A DNA stretch of 64,000 nucleotides from NCBI GenBank assembly GCA_044226285.1, contig JBGAHI010000004.1, positions 154,731 to 218,730 of the forward strand. Direction: 5' to 3'. The position numbers and the translations under genes are program-made. This DNA comes from Chitinophagales bacterium. GTDB taxonomy: Bacteria; Bacteroidota; Bacteroidia; Chitinophagales; LD1. The notes beneath the pieces are model-generated. The model worked only from the letters and a program-made list of their open reading frames with translations, made no database searches and had not been told where the DNA came from. Shown in pieces: positions 49,254 to 64,000 of the stretch (the stretch's first letter is position 1; each line of letters begins with the position of its first letter).

Positions 49254-49411
49254 CTACTATTTATGTCGTTCGTTTTTATATGAAAAAGAAGACTGGGAAA
49301 CCAAGCGGTCATGGTATGAAAAACAATTTGCTTGGGACTATTATGAATGTGATGAAGTTGGTATAAGGCAACTGTTTTTCTTTCCTTTCTTTTAAAAGTA
49401 TTTTTTTGTCT

Positions 49412-50248
49412 ATGAATGAGGAGTCGAACCATCCAAAACCAGTTCAAATAATAACAGCTGATCCATTCACTTTAGCACAATATTGGAAGCTAATGAAAAA
49501 GCATCGTAGTTTGATTTGGGTATTTGCACTGCAAGAAATCAGAACTATGTATGCGCAAACATACTTAGGCATCGTTTGGGCTGTGGTTCGTCCGTTGGTT
49601 TCGCTTATAATTTTCACGATTATTTTTAGTTACTTTCTAAAGGTGAAAACAGCTACACCCTATTATCTGTTCGCTTTTACAGGGATGATTGCATGGAATC
49701 TGTTCTCTCAATTAACTACTCAAGCTTCTTCGGCCATACTTCAAAAACAATATCTTATACGAAAACTATTTTTCCCAAAAATGGTGCTTTTTCTTTCAAA
49801 AGTCATCATTGTTTTAATAGAATTTGGGGTATCGCTCTCCCTTTTACTGGTATTTCTACTTTTTGACAATGTGCCATTTGGTATACATCTCTTGGCTTTA
49901 CCTGCATTTTTATTGTTAGACATTATTTTAGGTTTAACTATTGCATTGTGGATGAGCTCATTTACCATTCGTTTTAGAGATTTAAACCAACTATTACCCA
50001 CTATTATTGGAATTGGTATTTGGGTAACGCCAGTGTTCTTTCCGTCAACAATTATTCCGGAGAAATACAACTTCTTTGTATTCGCTAATCCCATGGGAGG
50101 GATAATAAAGGGTTTCCGATATGCACTTTTAGGCGAACCATTCCCGGAACTTGCCTATTGGTGGGCAATTCTTGTTGTTATTGTGTTGTTTTTTGTAGGT
50201 GTTTGGTATTTTATCCAAAAAGAAGACAATATCGTTGACTATGTATAG
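49412..50248 (+). CDS. ABC-2 type transporter permease (Wzm/TagG/KpsM-like polysaccharide exporter subunit)
   Basis: LIWVFALQEIRTMYAQTYLGIVWAVVRPL is the typical ABC-2 N-terminal block, and there are 6 TM helices. The ATG at 49412 is preferred over the TTG at 49406. No ATPase gene is adjacent. Confidence 0.8.
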   Translation: MNEESNHPKPVQIITADPFTLAQYWKLMKKHRSLIWVFALQEIRTMYAQTYLGIVWAVVRPLVSLIIFTIIFSYFLKVKTATPYYLFAFTGMIAWNLFSQLTTQASSAILQKQYLIRKLFFPKMVLFLSKVIIVLIEFGVSLSLLLVFLLFDNVPFGIHLLALPAFLLLDIILGLTIALWMSSFTIRFRDLNQLLPTIIGIGIWVTPVFFPSTIIPEKYNFFVFANPMGGIIKGFRYALLGEPFPELAYWWAILVVIVLFFVGVWYFIQKEDNIVDYV

Positions 50249-50311: not shown

Positions 50312-51193
50312 ATGCAAGTAGAATACCAAATCGGAGATCAAACTATCTTCCTAAACCTAAAAGGTGAGGTAGTACAAGGTGAAGAAAAAACTCTTCTTCA
50401 GGATGACGATAATTTATTGGCACATACCCCATCGGGAGAAACCGGATTTATTGTCGCTCCTTTTTTAACTGCTAAAGAGTTTGATAGTATTTATTCGGGA
50501 ATAACGTCAATGGTAAAGGCTTTGATTCGAAAAGTAAAAGGGGAAATAGATGATGATTTTTGTCTTGAACATTATCACCACTATGTAACAGATAGTGAAC
50601 ACTTACAAATAGCAAAACTAATACAGTATGGATGGAATGTAAGTGAATTCCCTATCGATTTTAGAAAAGTGGAGGAGCGAATTTCTACCATTATTGGAAT
50701 TGATGTTACCGCTGAGGCTCACCACTTAAACCCTGAATCGTTTATATCAGGATTATATGCGAACGACAAAAAAGTACAAATCTTTAACTTAAGGATAGTG
50801 AGACCCCAAAAACTACTCGACAGTAATCCGCCACACCGAGATGTATGGATTGATCGATTGAGAAATGCTATAAATATTTATTGCCCTATTTGTGGAAGCA
50901 CAGCTAAGAGTTCGCTTCCGCTCATTCCTTATAGTCATCATTTCAAAGAATCGGAAATCGAAAGAACTTCTAATGGAGCAACCCTAAACGGCACAAGTTA
51001 TTCTGTTCCATGTGTTACACTTTTACAAGGTAAGCCGCCACATCTAATACGACCTAATCCAAAACAAAATGAACTATTACTTTTTTCTCCATATCTAATT
51101 CATGGAGGTGGTTATAACTTTGAGGAAGAAGTAACCAGAGTTTCGCTTGAGATTAGGTTTTGGCGTTCGCCTGATATCTTACAACCCAAGTGA
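50312..51193 (+). CDS. Fe(II)/2-oxoglutarate oxygenase, PhyH-like
   Basis: H-x-D in PPHRDVW, SLPLIPYSHHF (like the vipGSH block), a distal His in YLIHGGGYN and Arg in RVSLEIRF. Confidence 0.6.
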   Translation: MQVEYQIGDQTIFLNLKGEVVQGEEKTLLQDDDNLLAHTPSGETGFIVAPFLTAKEFDSIYSGITSMVKALIRKVKGEIDDDFCLEHYHHYVTDSEHLQIAKLIQYGWNVSEFPIDFRKVEERISTIIGIDVTAEAHHLNPESFISGLYANDKKVQIFNLRIVRPQKLLDSNPPHRDVWIDRLRNAINIYCPICGSTAKSSLPLIPYSHHFKESEIERTSNGATLNGTSYSVPCVTLLQGKPPHLIRPNPKQNELLLFSPYLIHGGGYNFEEEVTRVSLEIRFWRSPDILQPK

Positions 51194-52126
51194 CGCACGC
51201 ACCTTATATCGGCCTTGATGCAGTAGTTTTCGTTGTGCTTTAAACAAAGAAAAATACAGGTACCCATAGATTACCAATACTACCAATACACTAAAGTTTA
51301 CCATTGCCAAAAAAAAATTGGTGTAGCAGCTGGAAGTATAATTCACAATATTTATAACTGCGCCAGTAAAGAGTATGAACAGCATAGAAGACGGAAGTAC
51401 AAATTGCCTTACTTTTTTTGACGAATATGTATATATCAGTTTTAATGCCCAAAGCCCTTGAATAATTAGTTGATGACCGGAAACCCCTGCATATCGGCTA
51501 TTGTGGGAAACAGAAACCCAATCTGTAGTATTAGCATGTGCATGTGCAATTCCGTCAATAAACACAATAGGGGGAAGAGATGAAGAAGTGTTGAATAACG
51601 CTCTTTTAAAAAGTCGAAATGGACTTCCCTGCATTGATGTTCCTAGGCATAAATGAAAGGCATGAAGTGCCATCCGACTGGCTACATTTCGCCAAAAGGA
51701 ATGCTTTCGGAGGACCGGGGTACCATAAATAATATCAGCATCTTGGAATTGTTGTTTCTCGATAAGCTTAGGGATATCTGAAGGAGAAAACTGAAGATCG
51801 TCATCTAATGTAATTATGAACTCCCCTTGTGCATGTTGAATACCACAAAAAATGGCAGTATGTTGACCTACGTTTGTTTGAAGCCGAACTGCTTTTATGT
51901 TTCCAATAGTTTTTGAAATGGTTTGAATATTCTCCCATGTATTGTCTGGGCTAGCATCGTCAACGATTATGATTTCAAAAGAATTTGTTGTCCGTGAAAG
52001 AACATCATAGACTTGTTGGTAGATACTATTCACAACGCATCCACTTTTGTATGCAGGTATAATTACAGAATATCCAATTATAGAATGGTGAAGCATTGTG
52101 TTAAAACACTTGATTTTATATAGCAA
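51179..52126 (-). CDS. GT2 polyprenyl-phosphate glycosyltransferase (ArnC/GtrB/DPM1-like)
   Basis: YSVIIPAYK...EIIIVDDASPDNT...ITLDDDLQ followed by two C-terminal TM helices, the architecture of undecaprenyl-phosphate sugar transferases. An alternative start (MLHHSII) lies at 52096. Confidence 0.75.
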   Translation of the reverse strand: MLYKIKCFNTMLHHSIIGYSVIIPAYKSGCVVNSIYQQVYDVLSRTTNSFEIIIVDDASPDNTWENIQTISKTIGNIKAVRLQTNVGQHTAIFCGIQHAQGEFIITLDDDLQFSPSDIPKLIEKQQFQDADIIYGTPVLRKHSFWRNVASRMALHAFHLCLGTSMQGSPFRLFKRALFNTSSSLPPIVFIDGIAHAHANTTDWVSVSHNSRYAGVSGHQLIIQGLWALKLIYTYSSKKVRQFVLPSSMLFILFTGAVINIVNYTSSCYTNFFLAMVNFSVLVVLVIYGYLYFSLFKAQRKLLHQGRYKVRASLGL

Positions 52127-56035: not shown

Positions 56036-57106
56036 ATGAATAACCCTATTAAAAAGTCAAAAACAATACTGCTCGTATTTTTTTCAATATTGCTTGTAGT
56101 ATTTCTGACTGGAGAGATAGGGTTACGGCTAAAGGGATTTAAAATGATGAGACTCACCACCCAACCCAGAAGCCTCTTAACTGCTGATTCTGTTTCTGGA
56201 TGGAAACTAACTGAAGGAACATACACTATATGTTTTAATGACTCCAATTCTTTTTTTGTTGCCACTGTAAATCAAAAAGGGGATCGAATAACTTCTATGA
56301 ATGCGCAAAGCTATGATACGGGCAAAGTAACTACTATACAAATTTACGGTTGTTCTTGCACTTTTGGATTCTCGGTACCAGATAGTTCTACGCAAAGTTT
56401 TATATTACAAAGTAAACTTCCTAATTGTCGGATCCAAAATAAAGGAGTACCTGGATATGGACTTGCGCAAATGTTTTTGCATTTACAACAAGTGGTATCT
56501 AGCGGTGACACTCCTCAAGTAGCCGTTTTTAATTACGCAAATTTTCAAGAAAGACGAACGGCTCTTAGTACTGAATGGGGCAGTGTTATTTCCCTTTTAG
56601 TTGAAGCTGAACCGTCCGATAAAAAAGGCGCCAACAAATCAGGTAGACTTACGCTACCATACTATGATATAAAGCAAGATTCGCTTTGGTTACACTACTC
56701 TGATTTTAGTGAGTTAGAGCATCTTTGTCCGCTCGTAAATTACTCCTCTTTACTATTGCTTTCAAACATACAATATGTACAATATAAAGACCAAGAAAAA
56801 ACAAACGCTTTTCATGAAACAGCAACTAAAACAGCTTTTGAAATCATGAAGTATTGTAAAAGCCATAGAATTACACCAATTTTTGCAAGCTTAACAGAAT
56901 CAGAAGACAGTTCACAAATAGATGATATTTCATTAAAACTCAAGCAATCAGGGTATTTAACGCTTAATTACGGCATTACTTTTGATGACAATAGATATAA
57001 TAAACCATTATCAAGAGATAAATCACATCCTAATTCAACAGCACACGCAGTTTATGCCGATAAACTATACGCTTACCTAATGGAAAAAAAATTAATCCTT
57101 AAATAA
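56036..57106 (+). CDS. Membrane-anchored SGNH/GDSL-type hydrolase or acyltransferase
   Basis: N-terminal TM helix, block I-like IYGCSCTFG, and block V-like DKSHPNSTAH (D-x-x-H). Confidence 0.5.
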   Translation: MNNPIKKSKTILLVFFSILLVVFLTGEIGLRLKGFKMMRLTTQPRSLLTADSVSGWKLTEGTYTICFNDSNSFFVATVNQKGDRITSMNAQSYDTGKVTTIQIYGCSCTFGFSVPDSSTQSFILQSKLPNCRIQNKGVPGYGLAQMFLHLQQVVSSGDTPQVAVFNYANFQERRTALSTEWGSVISLLVEAEPSDKKGANKSGRLTLPYYDIKQDSLWLHYSDFSELEHLCPLVNYSSLLLLSNIQYVQYKDQEKTNAFHETATKTAFEIMKYCKSHRITPIFASLTESEDSSQIDDISLKLKQSGYLTLNYGITFDDNRYNKPLSRDKSHPNSTAHAVYADKLYAYLMEKKLILK

Positions 57107-57159
57107 CACGCACATTTTTTTTGAAAAGATTTTGTTTTAAAAAAAATCCATGTTTACAA

Positions 57160-59601
57160 ATGACCACATTAGCTATTCTTAAAAAAAAAATGGTCCTACA
57201 TATAAAAAAAATGTGGTGGCTATTTACTTTTTTATGCGTTTGGGTGTGTATAGCTTCTTACCCTACTCAGCTAACGCATAAAGTTAACATAAATCAATCC
57301 GATGCTTTAGAATACCAGGTTTGTGCATACAACTTAGTGAAGTATGGAGTATTCCCAAAACTTAAAGTACATGGTCAACTTTCTGACTATGCTATTGATA
57401 GCAATACCAATATGCCACTTAGTAGCAGAATCTTTACAGCGCTTATTTTAAAACACCCCCCAATAGATGATTTTTCAAAACCCCCTCTCTATTCCTTGCT
57501 ACTTGCATTGGTCTACTTTCTAGCAGGCACAAATTTTAACAATGCCGTTTTTTTCCAACTGATTTTAGTATCGCTTACTACCGCATTACAACCATATCTA
57601 GGTTGGCGCTTAATGGGAAAAAAGGGCGTTGTTATAGGAATCATTTCTGCTTACTTTTATTTTCAAAGTTCCATAGACGAAATCCATCTCCTCTACCCCC
57701 ACTTTTTAGTGCAACTTATTTTATTAGTAGTTATTATAATTAACGAAAACCAACACCCCAAAAGATGGCAAATACTACTTACTGGATTTCTCTTAGGATG
57801 CTGTGTACTAACCAATGGAAATACGATTTTTATTCCATTCATGTATTTTTTATATCAATTGCTCCTTTACATTAAAAAGAAGATTTCAGGTGAATTTTTC
57901 CAGGGGTGGTTTGTTTTTTTATGTGTATTAGCGCCCTGGGTAGTTTTCGCCAATTTAGAATTATCAAAAACGAAAAATGAGCGAACGATTTGGAAACAGA
58001 ATCTGTGGAAGGGTGTAACTATTGAAAAATATAACACTACCTTTTTACTTGATAAAAGCCACCCCACCTTACAAGACAGTATTATTATTTTGAATTGTGT
58101 AAGAAACTTGTACAGTAAATTTGGAGAAGATGGATTTGTACTTATTTCAAAACAACCTTTTGGCGATGAAATATTAGGCACCCACAATGAATTTTGTGAA
58201 GATGGAAGATACCACCCTGAATGGAGATTCTTATCCAACTCCTACCACAACCGTCAAAACACAGGTCGTTCTACTCTCGTAAAAATTATTCTATTTTATA
58301 AGGACAACCCCTCTTTTATTTTAAAAAACATAACCGGTAAATTTTCAGGGACTACCAGTGGGTATTCCTTCTTATATTATCTTTCGGGGATATTTCTCTT
58401 ACTAATTCCCCTTTACAACAAGCTTCAAAAGTATTCCTTTTTGGGAGTAGCAGCAGTTATTTTGAGCGCTTATTTTTTATTGCCTTTTGAGTATTATATC
58501 GTTCTTTTTTTAGTAGGAATAGTAGCAGGGAATCTCTTTGTTTTTAGTGGAAAATACGAAATGGATATATCTCCTATCTGGATTTTTGCAATTACTAATA
58601 CTGTGTTTATTACTATATTTTTTTTGGGGGAAGCAAGATATGTAGCCATTCTAAATCAATTTATACTTATTATTTTGTTTGCATTAACTGCAATTTTTAT
58701 AAAACCTTTTTTTGTGCATGATTTTAGTTTTTATAAAACCAAAGGGGCTTTGCTTTATAAAAAATACATTCCGAAATTTAGGCTTTTTGAAGTAGTACTT
58801 ATGTCGGGTTATTTTATAGTAGCCTTTGCATTTGCGAATGATGCAATTGTAGTATCTAAAGTACTTACATCCATGGTTTATTACTTTGCAATCTTGTGCT
58901 ATATCGCATCGGTATACATGTTAAATTCATTTGCTGATTATGATTTAGATAAAGTTAATCCTCGCTTACAATATTTGAGCAGCTTTAAAAAAACGAGTTA
59001 TTTGTTGTGGACAGTTATTTTCTTATTACTGAGCTTATGTATTACTTTTTTCCTTAACAGAAAAATTGCCGTTTTTTTTTCCTTTTCGTACCTCTTATGG
59101 TATTTGTATTATTGCCCCCCTTTCCGGTATAAAAACTCGATATTAATTGGAACAGTTATCCATTTTGTTTCGGGCATATTACATTTTCAAATCGGATTTG
59201 AAGTTGCACAAACCGCAGGCTATTTATCCTTTATGATTTCTTTGTTTTTTGCGACACTACTCAGTATGGGGCATTTAAACCACGAGCTGCTCGATTTAGA
59301 TGCAGACCAAAAGTTTGGCATTAAAAACACTGCCATTACCTTTGGCAGAAAAAATGTTATTTGCCTCTTCTACGCACTATTTTTTCTTTCGCAAATATAC
59401 CTGTTGCTTATGTTCAAATGGAAATTTATTGACAAGTATGAACTAATACCGTTTCTTTATTTGCCGGTTATTGCTACCCTTTTTGTTGTGGGGGAAAAGC
59501 AAAAGCTCTTGCAACCGAAATACATTCAAAAATTATTCAGAATACTTTTGCTCATCAGTTCGATAGTACTCATCGCGCTAAAACTTATTGCTGTTCAATA
59601 G
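57160..59601 (+). CDS. Fusion protein: ArnT/PMT_2-type GT-C glycosyltransferase domain plus C-terminal UbiA-family prenyl/phosphoribosyl transferase domain
   Basis: The N-terminal part has the first-loop acidic motif DALEYQVCAYNLVKYG and SKPPLYSLLLALVYFLAG (the KPPL block of the ArnT family). The C-terminal part has NSFADYDLD (NxxxDxxxD) and LDLDADQKFGIKNTAITFG (second Asp-rich UbiA motif). The start is ambiguous: TTG 57121, or ATG at 57160, 57190 or 57211. Confidence 0.7.
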   Translation: MTTLAILKKKMVLHIKKMWWLFTFLCVWVCIASYPTQLTHKVNINQSDALEYQVCAYNLVKYGVFPKLKVHGQLSDYAIDSNTNMPLSSRIFTALILKHPPIDDFSKPPLYSLLLALVYFLAGTNFNNAVFFQLILVSLTTALQPYLGWRLMGKKGVVIGIISAYFYFQSSIDEIHLLYPHFLVQLILLVVIIINENQHPKRWQILLTGFLLGCCVLTNGNTIFIPFMYFLYQLLLYIKKKISGEFFQGWFVFLCVLAPWVVFANLELSKTKNERTIWKQNLWKGVTIEKYNTTFLLDKSHPTLQDSIIILNCVRNLYSKFGEDGFVLISKQPFGDEILGTHNEFCEDGRYHPEWRFLSNSYHNRQNTGRSTLVKIILFYKDNPSFILKNITGKFSGTTSGYSFLYYLSGIFLLLIPLYNKLQKYSFLGVAAVILSAYFLLPFEYYIVLFLVGIVAGNLFVFSGKYEMDISPIWIFAITNTVFITIFFLGEARYVAILNQFILIILFALTAIFIKPFFVHDFSFYKTKGALLYKKYIPKFRLFEVVLMSGYFIVAFAFANDAIVVSKVLTSMVYYFAILCYIASVYMLNSFADYDLDKVNPRLQYLSSFKKTSYLLWTVIFLLLSLCITFFLNRKIAVFFSFSYLLWYLYYCPPFRYKNSILIGTVIHFVSGILHFQIGFEVAQTAGYLSFMISLFFATLLSMGHLNHELLDLDADQKFGIKNTAITFGRKNVICLFYALFFLSQIYLLLMFKWKFIDKYELIPFLYLPVIATLFVVGEKQKLLQPKYIQKLFRILLLISSIVLIALKLIAVQ

Positions 59602-60433
59602 GTTTTGTACACTGCAAAACGCAGTAATCAATAATCCCTTTTTCGACAAGTAATTTTAACGACACACAGGCCTTATAATGATTATACAACAGTTCACTAT
59701 CTTCTTTTTTGATTTGTTCCATTTTCGTTAATGCACCATAATATGATTTTTCGATACCGGGCATAACAAAATTGAGAATGGAGGTTACTTCGATATTATC
59801 GAATCCTGCTTTTAATAATCTCTTCGCAGGCAGATCGATATAATGATTGACCGCCCATCCTTGCTGAAAAGCATTAAGGGCTGACATTGTTTCGGCATCC
59901 GTAGGTTTCAAAACTTCTATATAATCGATTATGAGCAACTTCCCTCCTGGTTTTAACACTCTAAACATTTCGACAAGAAATTGTTCCTTCGATTCAGAGT
60001 GACACATACTCTCAATCGCATAGGCAACATCTACACTATTGCTTTCCAGCGAAGTATTGGTATAGTCTTCTTCTAAAAAAACAATGTTGTTCAGCGGTTT
60101 TGCTTTTTGTTGTGCAAATGCAATTTGACTTCGAGAAATATTGATTCCGATGAGATGATGTTGTGGAAATTGTTCTTTCAAAAAGAACAAAGTTCCACCT
60201 ATTCCGCAACCTGCATCTACTACAGTTTGTGCATCGCTATTCCCTAAGCTCAATTGTGCGGCAATAAAGCTGTTCATTCTTAGCTTTGCTTGGTCATTAT
60301 CTTCAACTGAATCACTAAAATAACCCATGTGCATAGCTAAAGAATTAGGATTGTGTCCTTGCATAAATCGTTCTAGCCAGCATACATCATAATAGTCTAG
60401 AATTTGTTGTGTATATTTTTCTGCTTTGTTCAT
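59585..60433 (-). CDS. Class I SAM-dependent methyltransferase
   Basis: Motif I VVDAGCGIGGT and post-I/II blocks LIGINIS and LKPGGKLLIIDY. The YYD...W...F N-terminal block is as in lipid and sterol-type methyltransferases. It lies 6 nt downstream of the radical SAM gene. Confidence 0.8.
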   Translation of the reverse strand: MNKAEKYTQQILDYYDVCWLERFMQGHNPNSLAMHMGYFSDSVEDNDQAKLRMNSFIAAQLSLGNSDAQTVVDAGCGIGGTLFFLKEQFPQHHLIGINISRSQIAFAQQKAKPLNNIVFLEEDYTNTSLESNSVDVAYAIESMCHSESKEQFLVEMFRVLKPGGKLLIIDYIEVLKPTDAETMSALNAFQQGWAVNHYIDLPAKRLLKAGFDNIEVTSILNFVMPGIEKSYYGALTKMEQIKKEDSELLYNHYKACVSLKLLVEKGIIDYCVLQCTKPIEQQ

Positions 60434-60439
60434 TTTCGG

Positions 60440-62029
60440 TTATGATATTGCTGTTTGCTTTGTTGCCGTAAGCGTTAGCGAAATAATTTTTTCCTTATTC
60501 TTAACTGGATCATATTCACTTTTCAGCTTCTGCATAAAAGTAAAATTATCGCTTCCCTGTTTTATTTTCTTCGGTTTAAAGAAACGAAGAAGTTTTTCGG
60601 AATAAAACCCAAGAATTCCTATTCCTCCAATAAAGTTGAGTTTTACTTCGTGAAAACTTCGTGTATTGTATAATCGCTTAAGAATATATGTCGGGCGTAG
60701 ATAAAATGAAAATGTCATTTTTCTGTAGAGTTTTTCAACATCTTCAGTGCTTAAGCTATCAATATTAATAATAGGTGTTGATCCATAGTATTTATCCCAA
60801 TCATAGGTCAAAATTTTGTCTTCTCTAATGGTCTTATTGAATACATCATTCCCCGGGAAAGGTGTAAGTATCGAAACAGAGATGAGATCAGGATCGAGTT
60901 TTTTCAATAAGCGAATATTATCATTTACAACTTCATGCGTATCGCCTTCGTTGCCAACAATCATACATACCCTCGACTCGAGTTTTGCTTTTTTTGTCCA
61001 AAGCATTGCATTAAATACCTTCTCCACCTCAACTCCTTTTTGAATATTATCGAGAATTTTCTGGTCGAAATTTTCAACCCCATACATGATTCCCCAACAC
61101 CCTGCTTTCTTCATTAATAAAAGCATTTCTTCATCCACAATATCCACCCGTGCAAAACATTGCCATTGAACGTCTAATGGTTTTTCAATCAGCAAATTGC
61201 AAAAATCGGTAACCCGTTGTTTACTCACAGTAAACACATCATCCATTATGGCCACGTCTTTAACACCGTATTTTTCGTTTAAATATTTGAATTCGTTGTA
61301 TAAACTTTCTGCACTTCGATATGTCCACATTTTCCCAACTGTACGTCTACAAAAGCTGCACGACCAAGGGCATCCTCGACTTGTAACAATCATCATAGCC
61401 GGCAAACGTTTAAAATTTCCAATAATTGGGCGATAGGAATTTATATCAATCAAATCATAGGCCGGCATAGGTAGATCGTCTAGCGCTTTATTTCGAGAAC
61501 GCGACTTGTTTCGAATAAATTCTACAACACCATTGGTATTCTTCTTATATGCTAGTCCATTGATATTCTCGAAGGGTTGTCCCTGAAGAAGTTCAAGCAA
61601 AGTATCTTCCCCCTCTCCGATTGCCACACAATCAACCGATTCATTACTAAGTGCTTCATCGGGCACAAATGAAGCATGTGAACCCCCTAAAACAAAAACT
61701 GTATCAGGATAATAGAATTTACAGAGGGCAGCCAATCGATACGACACATTTATTGTTGGGGTAGTTGTAGTTACGCCAATCACTTTTATTGAACTAAATT
61801 TTTCAACGTAATTTTTTATAAACCAAAGCTCAAACTCTAAATCGGTATCTTTAAAATAATAATTGCAATCCACTATTTGAACGGAAAAATGGTGTTCCCT
61901 AACATATGCGGCTAATGCTGTTAACCCCAATGGGACATCTATCGTTCTTTGTCCATAGTAAATACCTTTAGGAAAAAAGAATGGTGGGTTAATCAACAAA
62001 CAATCCAATATGATTTTATCATTTTCCAT
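60440..62029 (-). CDS. B12-binding-domain radical SAM protein (class B, COG1032-type)
   Basis: CxxxCxxC cluster in SRGCPWSCSFCRR. The N-terminal ~150 aa has a Rossmann-like cobalamin-binding-domain pattern (VIGVTTTTP...VLGGSHAS). Confidence 0.8.
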   Translation of the reverse strand: MENDKIILDCLLINPPFFFPKGIYYGQRTIDVPLGLTALAAYVREHHFSVQIVDCNYYFKDTDLEFELWFIKNYVEKFSSIKVIGVTTTTPTINVSYRLAALCKFYYPDTVFVLGGSHASFVPDEALSNESVDCVAIGEGEDTLLELLQGQPFENINGLAYKKNTNGVVEFIRNKSRSRNKALDDLPMPAYDLIDINSYRPIIGNFKRLPAMMIVTSRGCPWSCSFCRRTVGKMWTYRSAESLYNEFKYLNEKYGVKDVAIMDDVFTVSKQRVTDFCNLLIEKPLDVQWQCFARVDIVDEEMLLLMKKAGCWGIMYGVENFDQKILDNIQKGVEVEKVFNAMLWTKKAKLESRVCMIVGNEGDTHEVVNDNIRLLKKLDPDLISVSILTPFPGNDVFNKTIREDKILTYDWDKYYGSTPIINIDSLSTEDVEKLYRKMTFSFYLRPTYILKRLYNTRSFHEVKLNFIGGIGILGFYSEKLLRFFKPKKIKQGSDNFTFMQKLKSEYDPVKNKEKIISLTLTATKQTAIS

Positions 62030-62222
62030 AGCTCAACATTTTAAAAATACCCATTCCAGTAGAAAAATCTTTAACCCCCTTTAATGTAATTTATCATTAC
62101 TGTTTGCTAACGCAATGTTTTTGCGCCTACAAACATTATAATCAAGCATTTGTCCCAAATATGAATTATTGTATTCACTTTATCAAACTTTTTCTTGATT
62201 TTTGCAGTGTTTACAAACACAA

Positions 62223-63098
62223 ATGAAATCAAGGGTATTTATTGACGGCTTGTTGGAAAACAAGTTACAAAAAAACGGTTTTGTTAAAATTCCTTTTTGG
62301 TCAGAAGACATTGTTGAGAAAGTACGCAATACCTTTGAGTCCGAATTCTATGAAAAGCATTCCTCCTCTAAAAAATTTAACACCACCTACGAGACGGTAA
62401 ACCTAACTTTAATTGACCGCGTTAAAGCTTATTTAGAACCTCTTTTTATAGAAAACGCAAAAAAATTATTTGCGGATATGCGACCTATTAGTGCCAGCTT
62501 TTTGGTAAAGGAGCCCGGAGTTAACTCGGAATCACCTCTCCATCAAGATGCTAGTTTTGTGGATGAACCCGAGCACTGTTCTGTATCGGTATGGGTAGCC
62601 CTTCAAGATTGCAATGCACAAAACAGTTGCTTACAGTTTATACCGGGTAGTCATAAATTATTTACGGGCATTCGATTTATTCCATATACGAATCAAACCG
62701 TTGATGAGCATAAACATCGACTAATGCCATACCTTACTCAACACACGATTAAGGCAGGAGAGGCATTTGTGTTCTACAACGCAACGTTACATGCTTCGGG
62801 AAATAATCTAAGCGATACTCCACGATTAGCGGCAGTTATGGGTTTTTACAGCGCAAGTACACTATTGAGCCTATACAAAAAGAACGAATCCAACAACCAA
62901 ATCGACAGATTTAGCATATCAGTTGAACAATTGAAACAAATCAACGATGTTTTTCTTCCAAGTGAGGAACAACGTATAGAGTCGTTAGCTTTACCTTTGA
63001 ATATAACATCGAAGGAGGTAAGCCGTTTTCTAAAAGAAGAATTCAGCTTACCGAAACGAATTTTAGCTTGGGCAAACAAATATATAAACCCTAATTAA
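62223..63098 (+). CDS. Phytanoyl-CoA dioxygenase (PhyH) family Fe(II)/2OG oxygenase
   Basis: SPLHQDASFVD (HxD), VWVALQD, LQFIPGSHK, and a distal His in ATLHASGNN. The ATG at 62223 is preferred over the TTG at 62202. Confidence 0.75.
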   Translation: MKSRVFIDGLLENKLQKNGFVKIPFWSEDIVEKVRNTFESEFYEKHSSSKKFNTTYETVNLTLIDRVKAYLEPLFIENAKKLFADMRPISASFLVKEPGVNSESPLHQDASFVDEPEHCSVSVWVALQDCNAQNSCLQFIPGSHKLFTGIRFIPYTNQTVDEHKHRLMPYLTQHTIKAGEAFVFYNATLHASGNNLSDTPRLAAVMGFYSASTLLSLYKKNESNNQIDRFSISVEQLKQINDVFLPSEEQRIESLALPLNITSKEVSRFLKEEFSLPKRILAWANKYINPN

Positions 63099-63146
63099 TG
63101 CTATATTAGTAAGCCGATTACCGGACAAAAACTTTTATGTTTTAAG

Positions 63147-64000
63147 ATGAATGGAACAAAACACATAGCACAAGTTGGCATCGAAAAACTCGGGTTTTAT
63201 TTGTTTGATTTTTTATCGGAAAGCAACATTCAGGCACTAGGTGAACTTTATTATGCTTGTTATGGTAACGACCCGTCAAACGGAATGGTCGTTTCGCATA
63301 ATCACGGAGATGCAGCATTTAATATATCCGTTAGCCATAAAATAAATGCAATTCTTGGAAAATCTATTGAATCCCAATTCCCGGATTACCGTTTTTTTCT
63401 TTCGCATTTTGCAGTTAAAAAGGCAGGAAATGAAAACAGTTTTGAACTACATCAAGACTGGTCAATTGTTGATGAATCGCAATTTAATAGCTATCAAATT
63501 TGGATTCCGTTAAAATTGAGCTATCCTGAAAATGGAGGCATGTGTTTCATACCACGAAGCCAACACTTCAATACTAATATACGATCCGGTAGTTTCGGCA
63601 TTCCGGCAATCCCTATTACTTCTGCTGTATATCCGTATCTCTCTTATGCAAGAATATTTCCCGGACAAGCTGTAGCCTTTTCGAACAACCTCCTTCATGG
63701 ATCGTTTTCAAACCCAACCGATGAAGATAGAATATCGGTTATTGTTAACATAGTTCCTAAAATGGCTGATACAACTTATTTCCATTTTAATAATAACACA
63801 CGACAAACAGAAGTTTATTCGATAGATGCAGAAACTTTGCTAACTCATTTGCCTCGTCTTGAAAAAGGAGAAATGCCCTTAAACTATGCACCTAAAGCTA
63901 TTATTGATGCTCCTAAACAAAACAATAAAGCCATTAGTTTTTCGGATGTTTTAGATTGGATAAAAACAGACAGACATGAGCTAGGATTGAAGGATAACTA
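63147..64000 (+). CDS. PhyH-like Fe(II)/2OG oxygenase; the 3' end lies beyond the window
   Basis: Hand translation from the ATG at 63147 gives MNGTKHIAQVGIEKLGFYLF...ELHQDWSIVDE (HxD)...IWIPLK...MCFIPRSQH...LLHGSFSN. The frame is open to the window edge, so it is not in the ORF track. Confidence 0.65.
   Translation, partial: MNGTKHIAQVGIEKLGFYLFDFLSESNIQALGELYYACYGNDPSNGMVVSHNHGDAAFNISVSHKINAILGKSIESQFPDYRFFLSHFAVKKAGNENSFELHQDWSIVDESQFNSYQIWIPLKLSYPENGGMCFIPRSQHFNTNIRSGSFGIPAIPITSAVYPYLSYARIFPGQAVAFSNNLLHGSFSNPTDEDRISVIVNIVPKMADTTYFHFNNNTRQTEVYSIDAETLLTHLPRLEKGEMPLNYAPKAIIDAPKQNNKAISFSDVLDWIKTDRHELGLKDN

Follow-up and report, generated by a model that had tools for sequence, protein, structure and literature searches.

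Which molecule does a cobalamin-type radical S-adenosylmethionine (SAM) enzyme modify when its gene lies beside those of a methyltransferase and a membrane-bound fusion protein in a surface-glycan locus? The question is raised by a 64,000-nucleotide stretch of the genome of a Chitinophagales bacterium (GenBank assembly GCA_044226285.1, contig JBGAHI010000004.1, positions 154,731 to 218,730), called here the window, in which a class B radical SAM (rSAM) gene and a class I SAM-dependent methyltransferase gene run towards a gene that joins a GT-C-like domain to a UbiA domain. The three genes belong to a glycan locus that begins near 49 kb of the window and reaches about 37 kb past its end. A preliminary description of this DNA proposed an isoprenoid or acyl chain, and not a sugar, as the target of tailoring by the pair. 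We arrive at a different reading, to which we give about an even chance, namely that the rSAM and methyltransferase edit the sugar part of a lipid-linked donor that would be made by the UbiA domain and used by the GT-C domain. The genes and intervals on which the argument turns are as follows.

57121-59601, plus strand: GT-C-like/UbiA fusion gene (826 amino acids, aa; Pfam UbiA at residues 568-768), the constant partner of the rSAM and methyltransferase genes
59585-59601: 17 nt shared by the methyltransferase and GT-C/UbiA genes, whose 3' ends converge and overlap here, read from the sequence
59585-60433, minus strand: class I SAM-dependent methyltransferase gene (282 aa; Pfam, NCBIfam and PDB search)
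60434-60439, minus strand: spacer CCGAAA, 6 nt, between the rSAM stop and the methyltransferase start, read from the sequence
60440-62029, minus strand: class B (B12-binding domain) rSAM gene (529 aa; Pfam B12-binding and Radical_SAM)
62030-62201: divergent intergenic region of 172 nt between the rSAM gene and the first PhyH gene

Direct reading gives the rSAM stop codon TAA, then CCGAAA and then the methyltransferase ATG, and the two genes would form one transcription unit. Both are real genes and not chance open reading frames (ORFs), because orthologues exist at 47-79% identity and the AlphaFold2 model of the rSAM has a mean predicted local distance difference test (pLDDT) score of 92.1. 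The preliminary description had placed them 6 nt apart in a two-gene operon, convergent on the GT-C/UbiA gene, and its coordinates and spacer agree with the sequence, in which the stops overlap by 17 nt. Its reading of the first product as having a CPWSCSFC cluster and an N-terminal cobalamin-type domain is likewise borne out, both Pfam domains lying above their cut-offs, as is that of the second as a class I methyltransferase; we also agree with it that the sequence does not reveal the substrate. The 172-nt region is presumed to hold the promoters of the rSAM and first PhyH genes, and the strict Bacteroidota -7 motif TAnnTTTG was found on neither of its strands.

Part of the answer lies in what accompanies the rSAM gene elsewhere. 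A search of 5.8 billion proteins yielded some 40 clusters with at least 50% identity, labelled simply "radical SAM protein" of Bacteroidota or Chitinophagales, and below these, at 40-49%, a large set whose members belong to Patescibacteria, Nanoarchaeota, Woesearchaeota, Saganbacteria, Omnitrophica, Elusimicrobiota and Pseudomonadota. The close relatives (47-79% rSAM identity) come from species-representative genomes and metagenomes, and their hosts are metagenome-assembled genomes (MAGs) of Bacteroidota, assigned to Chitinophagales, Flavobacteriales and other Bacteroidia. All 14 loci of this clade have a UbiA gene (in locus L029 by tblastn), and the order rSAM-then-methyltransferase is kept in 13 of the 14, the methyltransferase, whose orthologues are 37-49% identical and adjoin the rSAM gene, being missing in L018 only. 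In three contigs read by gene calls the order of rSAM, methyltransferase and convergent UbiA recurs, with UbiA as a stand-alone protein of 270-283 aa in two and as an 800-aa fusion in one. Convergent UbiA follows the methyltransferase in most clade loci; the UbiA fusion of L029 is co-directional. Homologues of the fusion's N-terminal domain also occur as separate proteins of 520-566 aa (L010, L016, L017 and L018). The functional link of the pair to the UbiA gene, as first proposed, is thus sustained, since homologues remain linked. At 50% identity or more, one of 12 loci has a glycosyltransferase family 2 (GT2) gene, and UbiA is missing from none. Homologues of Wzm and/or Wzt, the two parts of an ABC-2 type transporter, lie within 10 kb of the rSAM-methyltransferase-UbiA triad in 10 of the 12 loci examined, and PhyH genes are variable companions, from none to at least five per locus. 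Within the order the rSAM clade was found in 4 of 401 genomes, and six further species of the genus lacked it, a rare and patchy spread that is typical of accessory surface-glycan genes.

More distant homologues, which share 31-49% identity and the same invariant residues, show a different partner. Our sample comprised 80 metagenome loci in which ORFs were called and neighbours classified, 68 of them below 50% identity and with at least two neighbours. A small GT2 gene stands within three genes of the rSAM in 46 of the 68 and is directly adjacent in 39; within the same distance there is a class I methyltransferase in 25 and a polytopic membrane protein of at least 350 aa, in some cases a PMT_2-type GT-C, in 45. 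Independent Pfam tallies of immediate neighbours gave GT2 in 22/62 and 21/67, PMT_2 in 9/62 and 7/67, and methyltransferase in 8/62, with nucleoside diphosphate (NDP)-sugar genes in about 3/67. No isoprenoid-chain enzyme adjoined these homologues in the neighbourhoods examined. The best PDB matches of the adjoining small GT2 proteins are DPMS (5.8e-18), ArnC (about 1e-17) and GtrB (6e-10), all of which load a sugar onto polyprenyl phosphate. Gene calls illustrate the cassettes: in Patescibacteria, an rSAM, a 231-aa GT2 and a methyltransferase in a GT4-rich cluster that also holds a 719-aa rSAM-methyltransferase fusion; in Saganbacteria, an rSAM, a GT2-methyltransferase fusion and a PMT_2 GT-C; in Nanoarchaeota, a Glycos_transf_4 (WecA-type) protein, an rSAM and a methyltransferase; and in Pseudomonadota, an rSAM, a GT2 with a GtrA_DPMS_TM domain and a 601-aa membrane protein. 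The Patescibacteria fusion lies at L019:13638-15797, and GT2-methyltransferase fusions directly adjoin homologues of the studied rSAM at L020:9445-10884, L053:2208-3683 and L085:1354-2757.

The relation between the two kinds of cassette was read from a FastTree phylogeny of 85 rSAMs. The UbiA-linked proteins form one supported clade (SH-like 99, 14 rows) whose sister, likewise supported, consists of GT2-linked rSAMs, and the two lie within a GT2-linked radiation. On the tree the UbiA label requires 2 changes against a shuffled mean of 12.3, and none of 500 shuffles was as low. Because the UbiA-linked clade is nested among GT2-linked rSAMs, this suggests a single replacement of GT2 by UbiA in an otherwise similar cassette of rSAM, GT-C and a methyltransferase. 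The proposal of an isoprenoid chain rather than a sugar lacks support here on two counts, since the homologues at 31-49% adjoin DPMS/ArnC/GtrB-like GT2, PMT_2 GT-C and NDP-sugar genes, and since the UbiA-linked clade lies within the GT2-linked radiation and isoprenoid-chain neighbours are never seen. The glycan locus of the studied genome itself holds, beyond the window, two other B12-rSAM genes in tandem (window-equivalent 81486-84490) that are 31% identical to the studied rSAM and are followed by a DUF6056 membrane protein and, 5 kb on, by a 230-aa DPMS-like GT2. These tandem proteins and the L019 fusion were considered as members of the family and set aside as long-branch outliers in the tree.

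The rSAM protein has the architecture of a class B enzyme. Pfam places a B12-binding domain (PF02310) at residues 33-147 with 59.7 bits (cut-off 32.1) and a Radical_SAM domain at residues 214-373 with 63.7 bits. The cluster motif, in the context SRGCPWSCSFCRR, is CPWSCSFC, a CxxxCxxC motif whose C220, C224 and C227 do not vary among 45 homologues with identities as low as 40%. GGxH (115-118) and GEGE (138-141) are kept across homologues, and the family alignment has 50 invariant columns. Besides the cluster cysteines, C277, C291 and C311 are among these columns and are invariant in all 45 homologues. Foldseek aligns the whole of the model with TsrM, QCMT, CysS, OxsB and TokK, and the protein has a long amphipathic helix at residues 459-484. 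GT2-linked homologues stop about 45 residues earlier, past this helix, and a C-terminal extension (window 60440-60620, the last ~60 residues) is found in the UbiA-linked clade only. It consists of a variable basic linker and then a near-invariant terminal peptide, LTxTATKQTAI(T/S), the last residues in the window protein being LTLTATKQTAIS in the tail alignment; this peptide might dock the enzyme to the UbiA protein or the transporter.

Among described enzymes the protein stands apart. It matched 27 NCBIfam models, every one far below its cut-off: the best is HpnJ (TIGR03471), with 186.7 bits against 577.6 over residues 84-453, followed by BchE (160/481), ApyD (156/750), PhpK (136/600), HpnR (101/650), AprD4 (91/500), the ladderane rSAM (90/360) and QCMT (84/360). 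Membership in any characterised class B family (HpnJ, BchE, ApyD, PhpK, HpnR, BzaD, QCMT, AprD4 or ladderane) was rejected on these curated cut-offs, and for the same reason there is no clustering with a housekeeping rSAM, the outcome that the preliminary description had named as fatal to its proposal. No hpn genes occur among the neighbours, which are glycan-locus genes instead. The closest solved structures by sequence are AprD4 (2.4e-18, rSAM core only, residues 186-436), the MCR glutamine C-methyltransferase QCMT 9ccb (PMC12931638) and TokK, and Foldseek ranks AprD4 first for the model (E 5.9e-28, TMt 0.77), then TsrM, QCMT, CysS, OxsB and TokK. We therefore regard the protein as class B by domain composition and as belonging to an uncharacterised family. 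BchE is an oxidative cyclase and AprD4 a sugar diol-dehydratase. That class B enzymes typically methylate, as had been pointed out for this gene, stands as a general prior and not as a finding, because the nearest families (HpnJ and BchE by profile, AprD4 by structure) are not methylases.

The constant partner of the pair consists of an N-terminal polytopic GT-C-like region of about 510-540 aa and a C-terminal UbiA-family region of about 280 aa. The N-terminal domain shows, in alignment, a D..EY loop together with a KPPLY block. It aligns with the PMT_2-type neighbours of the distant cassettes (hhalign 96.4%, E 1.3e-9, 126 columns), and two of its homologues match PMT_2 below threshold (23.9 and 22.6 bits against 26.1); a PDB profile search returned nothing meaningful for it. 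Its assignment to the GT-C fold is a prediction from hhalign and motifs. The UbiA domain (Pfam 61 bits, AlphaFold2 pLDDT above 90) carries the Asp-rich motifs NSFADYDLD and DLDAD, with N59, D67, D182 and D186 invariant in 11 orthologues. Its best PDB sequence match is AfUbiA 4tq3 (2.6e-14), then DGGGPS, and NCBIfam models of the PRK12884 prenyltransferase, ChlG and DGGGPS match 10, 9 and 6 of the 11 orthologues, respectively. Foldseek gives AfUbiA (TMt 0.73), DGGGPS (0.69), UBIAD1, ApUbiA and then DPPRS 8j8j (0.62, E 0.028). In six loci without the GT-C-like domain, a family of polytopic membrane proteins of 570-606 aa lies one to three genes from the triad (L009:13280-15013, L011:13362-15071, L013:249-2033, L014:8144-9913, L015:6112-7932 and L030:2616-4328); it has no Pfam match and no profile relation to PMT_2 or to the GT-C-like domain of the window.

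We interpret the pair as cytoplasmic tailoring enzymes for a polyprenyl-(phosphate)-linked sugar donor in a surface-glycan locus of the Wzm/Wzt type. The interpretation is favoured because the wider family is tied to GT2 and GT-C and the UbiA-linked clade is nested there, because the nearest characterised relatives, HpnJ and AprD4, act on sugars (lipid-linked in the case of HpnJ), and because the relation of the N-terminal domain to the PMT_2-type GT-C of the cassettes ties the UbiA fusion to them. The occurrence of both rSAM-methyltransferase and GT2-methyltransferase fusions means, in turn, that the functions are linked. The domain architecture, the conserved gene linkage, the replacement of GT2 by UbiA on the tree and the supply of cobalamin by uptake are what the analysis shows, and the following course of events would fit them. 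The UbiA domain would load or build the lipid-linked head group. The rSAM would then use a 5'-deoxyadenosyl radical, probably together with cobalamin, to modify an unactivated carbon of the sugar, with roughly even odds between C-methylation and a rearrangement or deoxygenation of the HpnJ/AprD4 type. The class I methyltransferase would add an O- or N-methyl group, and the product would be flipped or exported, after which the GT-C domain would transfer it on the outer face of the membrane. A precedent exists, because auxiliary cytoplasmic enzymes edit undecaprenyl phosphate (undP)-ribofuranose before GT-C transfer (PMC11127046).

Several observations weigh against this interpretation. Among the approximately 40 proteins of the locus, Pfam and NCBIfam recognise neither a GtrA, SMR or MATE flippase, nor a HAD/PAP2 (phosphoribose) phosphatase, nor an epimerase of the DprE1/E2 type. 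The AlphaFold2 model of the fusion has low confidence in the N-terminal domain and leaves its GT-C fold unconfirmed by structure. As to the UbiA domain, DPPRS 8j8j was not recovered by its PDB profile search, the DPPRS models NF008977 and NF008978 match 1 of the 11 orthologues with E 0.04 and 0.068, and Foldseek ranks DPPRS below AfUbiA, DGGGPS, UBIAD1 and ApUbiA, so that a DPPRS/PPPRS-type phosphoribosyltransferase found support in none of the three approaches. It is at least as likely that the domain is a true prenyl-diphosphate-using prenyltransferase, which makes the proposed donor tentative. Orthology of the Bacteroidota methyltransferase with the 185-200-aa methyltransferases of the GT2 cassettes was also rejected, the similarity being that of class I enzymes in general, and because the methyltransferases are not orthologous the GT2 and UbiA cassettes are equivalent only in part. 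The Elusimicrobiota homologue, the sole exception among five contexts at 43-49% identity, has surroundings like those of ribosomally synthesised and post-translationally modified peptides (RiPPs), and at 31-49% identity the substrate may differ between clades.

The alternative that keeps closest to the preliminary description, and that we consider unlikely, is tailoring of an isoprenoid chain. UbiA would prenylate an acceptor, the rSAM would methylate an unactivated chain carbon, the methyltransferase an olefin, and PhyH enzymes would hydroxylate, yielding a decorated isoprenoid lipid or lipid anchor for export by the ABC-2 transporter. The resemblance of the UbiA domain to AfUbiA, DGGGPS and ChlG, which use prenyl diphosphates and form ethers or esters, speaks for it, as do the PhyH genes that accompany most loci and the fact that the class B enzymes HpnP and HpnR methylate hopanoids (PMC13459092). 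The score of the studied rSAM against HpnR, at 101 of 650 bits, gives little room for that comparison, the PhyH count near the triad ranges as expected for optional tailoring, and the wider family, tied to GT2, GT-C and NDP-sugar genes, encloses the UbiA-linked clade and has no isoprenoid-chain enzymes nearby. The methyltransferase bears on both sides. It matches Pfam Methyltransf_11/31/25 at about 1e-20, has VVDAGCGIGG as motif I, and by these and its PDB matches is assigned to the RebM, phosphoethanolamine methyltransferase and CMAS-like structural group. Its Pfam CMAS match is marginal and partial (31.0 bits, cut-off 27), and there are weak matches to geranyl diphosphate (GPP) 2-C-methyltransferase, TleD-type enzymes, sterol C24-methyltransferase and cyclopropane fatty-acid (CFA) synthase, the last at 4.7e-5 in the PDB and 38 of 400 bits in NCBIfam. 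Its best PDB relatives are the phosphoethanolamine N-methyltransferases (6e-21), RebM (1e-15), MitM and a glucose O-methyltransferase. The earlier label "lipid-type", which rests on the marginal CMAS match, is a weak one, and the N- and sugar O-methyltransferases as best relatives argue against a chain substrate.

Quite improbable, in our judgement, is an action of the pair at another stage of glycan assembly, either before the lipid carrier, on an unusual nucleotide sugar, or on the growing undecaprenyl diphosphate (Und-PP)-linked glycan as a non-reducing terminal cap that the C-terminal extension of Wzt would recognise before ABC export, with UbiA linked for some other reason. The transporter gives this proposal its weight: Wzm and/or Wzt accompany the triad at the frequency given above, and the Wzt of this locus, at 416 aa, exceeds the length of an ATPase domain by itself. 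Methyl groups are among the known chain-terminating caps, as in WbdD of E. coli O8/O9a. NDP-sugar enzymes adjoin some homologues, and GenK and GenD1 reportedly methylate free glycoside sugars. Such an action leaves unexplained the strict adjacency to UbiA (14/14) or to a DPMS-like GT2 (39/68), beside which NDP-sugar genes are far rarer as immediate neighbours, and the GT2-methyltransferase and rSAM-methyltransferase fusions tie the chemistry to the step of the lipid-phosphate sugar synthase. That the rSAM modifies a peptide (RiPP) or a cofactor and stands in a glycan locus by chance is scarcely credible, for all that the RiPP enzyme ApyD is among its top profile matches at 156 bits and that the homologue with RiPP-like surroundings, L028, lies beside Lant_dehydr_N-like genes and other B12-rSAMs, since the ApyD cut-off of 750 bits is far above that score, no precursor peptide or RiPP machinery occurs near any of the 14 clade loci, and the linkage to UbiA, methyltransferase and ABC-2 transporter is kept across orders.

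If the pair edits a lipid-linked sugar, its system has relatives among those already described. In three-component glycosylation, O antigens receive pentofuranoses through a UbiA-family polyprenyl phosphoribose synthase (PPPRS), a flippase and a GT-C enzyme, and prior to export undP-ribofuranose is edited by an auxiliary epimerase in the cytoplasm (Kelly et al., 2024; PMC11127046). The parts in Citrobacter youngae O1/O2 are the PPPRS ORF15 (UbiA family), the MATE flippase ORF14, the GT-C ORF12 and the auxiliary epimerase ORF13, and the mycobacterial counterpart is DPPRS-DprE1/E2-Emb/Aft (PMC11127046). The window locus shares with these the coupling of a UbiA-family enzyme to a GT-C in an O-antigen-type locus and the presence of soluble editing enzymes. 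It differs in that its UbiA fails the DPPRS and PPPRS profiles, is nearer to AfUbiA and DGGGPS and is fused to the GT-C; that the PRP/PAP2 phosphatase, epimerase and MATE/SMR/GtrA flippase of such systems are not recognised by Pfam or NCBIfam among its approximately 40 proteins; that its auxiliary enzymes are a B12-rSAM and a methyltransferase, neither of which the C. youngae-type system has; and that the recurrent membrane transporter is ABC-2 (Wzm/Wzt) rather than a dedicated small flippase.

Through its GT2 (DPMS/ArnC/GtrB-like)-rSAM-GT-C (PMT_2)-methyltransferase cassettes, the wider family resembles the Gtr and Arn systems. These combine a GT2 (GtrB or ArnC), a small flippase and a GT-C, and in the latter ArnD edits Und-P-Ara4FN on the carrier. 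Unlike them, the present systems have a radical SAM component, none being described there, and in the window clade UbiA replaces GT2. As for the rSAM itself, HpnJ, its best curated score, belongs with HpnI and HpnK to the route to the hopanoid cyclitol ether, where it follows the GT2 HpnI and has as its substrate a sugar that a lipid already carries; the studied score is a third of the HpnJ cut-off, and no hopanoid genes occur in the neighbourhood. HpnJ acts on hopanoid-linked glucosamine with a proposed ring contraction, a reaction that is not biochemically proven (PMC13459092). Calditol synthase Cds, a radical SAM enzyme of ring contraction on a lipid-linked hexose, is likened by description only. 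AprD4 (PDB 6fd2), a 1,2-diol dehydratase on paromamine, is closest among solved structures by sequence and fold and has a sugar substrate; though it has a related domain, it binds no cobalamin (PMC12931638), unlike the window protein with its clear Pfam B12-binding domain. GenK, GenD1, Fms7 and MoeK5 are also of class B architecture and place methyl groups on unactivated sugar carbons, a likeness by description and not by sequence. MoeK5 reportedly acts in a phosphoglycolipid pathway with carbamoyl- and amido-transferases, and carbamoyltransferases are found in the studied locus as well. We know of no report that links any of these four to UbiA, GT-C or envelope-glycan ABC-2 transporters. In the literature we found no description of an rSAM in Gtr/Arn/PPPRS-type systems, of a UbiA-rSAM-methyltransferase cluster in Bacteroidetes, or of any radical SAM enzyme in lipid-carrier-dependent periplasmic glycosylation. 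The window system, built around two uncharacterised enzyme families, is set apart by the UbiA subtype, the fusion and the rSAM with its methyltransferase.

The remaining genes of the glycan locus that bear on the system are these.

49406-50248, plus strand: ABC-2 (Wzm-type) permease gene
51179-52126, minus strand: GT2 glycosyltransferase gene (315 aa; Pfam Glycos_transf_2, 108 bits; glycan-locus context)
56036-57106, plus strand: gene of a 356-aa protein, anchored in the membrane at its N-terminus and weakly similar to SGNH/GDSL esterases (NCBIfam NF047474, 3.6e-9)
62202-63098 and from 63147 (together 62202-64000), plus strand: first two PhyH-type Fe(II)/2-oxoglutarate (2OG) oxygenase genes of a longer array that continues past the window
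window-equivalent 67254-68504, just beyond the window: Wzt-type ATPase gene (416 aa)

The Wzm and Wzt genes travel with the triad (L008, L011 and L014-L018) and are often adjacent to it, for example beside UbiA in L008 and L016. For this reason, and because no flippase of the GtrA, SMR or MATE type was recognised in the locus, export or flipping of the triad's product may fall to the ABC transporter, which need not be a general O-antigen exporter. Homologues of the 315-aa GT2 occur near the triad in L007, L016 and L018 only, so it is not a constant partner, and homologues of the 356-aa protein adjoin the UbiA gene in L007 and L017. Beyond the window, besides the 230-aa GT2 mentioned above, the locus holds further PhyH genes, two carbamoyltransferases, a DegT aminotransferase, a GFO oxidoreductase and a 943-aa tetratricopeptide repeat (TPR) protein. 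A WelO5-family Fe/2OG enzyme (123 bits, minus strand, window-equivalent 68488-69339) is also encoded there; because its iron-binding motif reads H-C-E (an HxE triad), it is predicted to be a hydroxylase and not a halogenase.

The proposed chemistry calls for a source of cobalamin, for which the preliminary description had suggested looking at uptake and synthesis genes. The sole cobalamin riboswitch of the genome (102 bits, contig C4:179420-179616, outside the window) precedes genes of a protein with a type IX secretion system (T9SS) tail, a TonB-dependent receptor with weak BtuB similarity, two further products without assignment, and BtuC/BtuD-like proteins. CobS was not found in the genome. 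By gene content the organism can import corrinoids and probably cannot complete their synthesis; of the two routes, uptake is thus found and synthesis is not. That cobalamin can be imported supports the interpretation of the pair as sugar-editing enzymes.

To our knowledge, the functions of most class B radical SAM enzymes have yet to be assigned, and for this family a wider role can be put forward tentatively, at somewhat less than an even chance. A widespread and so far undescribed family of B12-domain rSAMs, hosted by Patescibacteria, DPANN archaea, Saganbacteria, Omnitrophota, Elusimicrobiota, Pseudomonadota and Bacteroidota, may be a fourth, sugar-editing component of periplasmic glycosylation (GT2 or UbiA, with GT-C), in which a UbiA enzyme other than a phosphoribosyltransferase would supply the donor in Bacteroidota. 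Before the transfer to surface glycans, such a component would alter the carbon skeleton of a monosaccharide carried on polyprenyl phosphate, whether by C-methylation, ring contraction or deoxygenation, and it would add to the three-component glycosylation model of 2024. The UbiA partner, fused to a GT-C yet unlike known phosphoribosyltransferases, may reveal a new reaction of the UbiA superfamily, and as a source of donors it would be a new route to lipid-linked glycosyl donors. The module comprises three or four genes and is therefore directly testable, and enzymes that functionalise unactivated sugar carbons on a lipid carrier could find use in glycoengineering. If the proposal is true, the entry of unusual branched, deoxy or carbocyclic residues into the surface glycans of many uncultured lineages would have an explanation.

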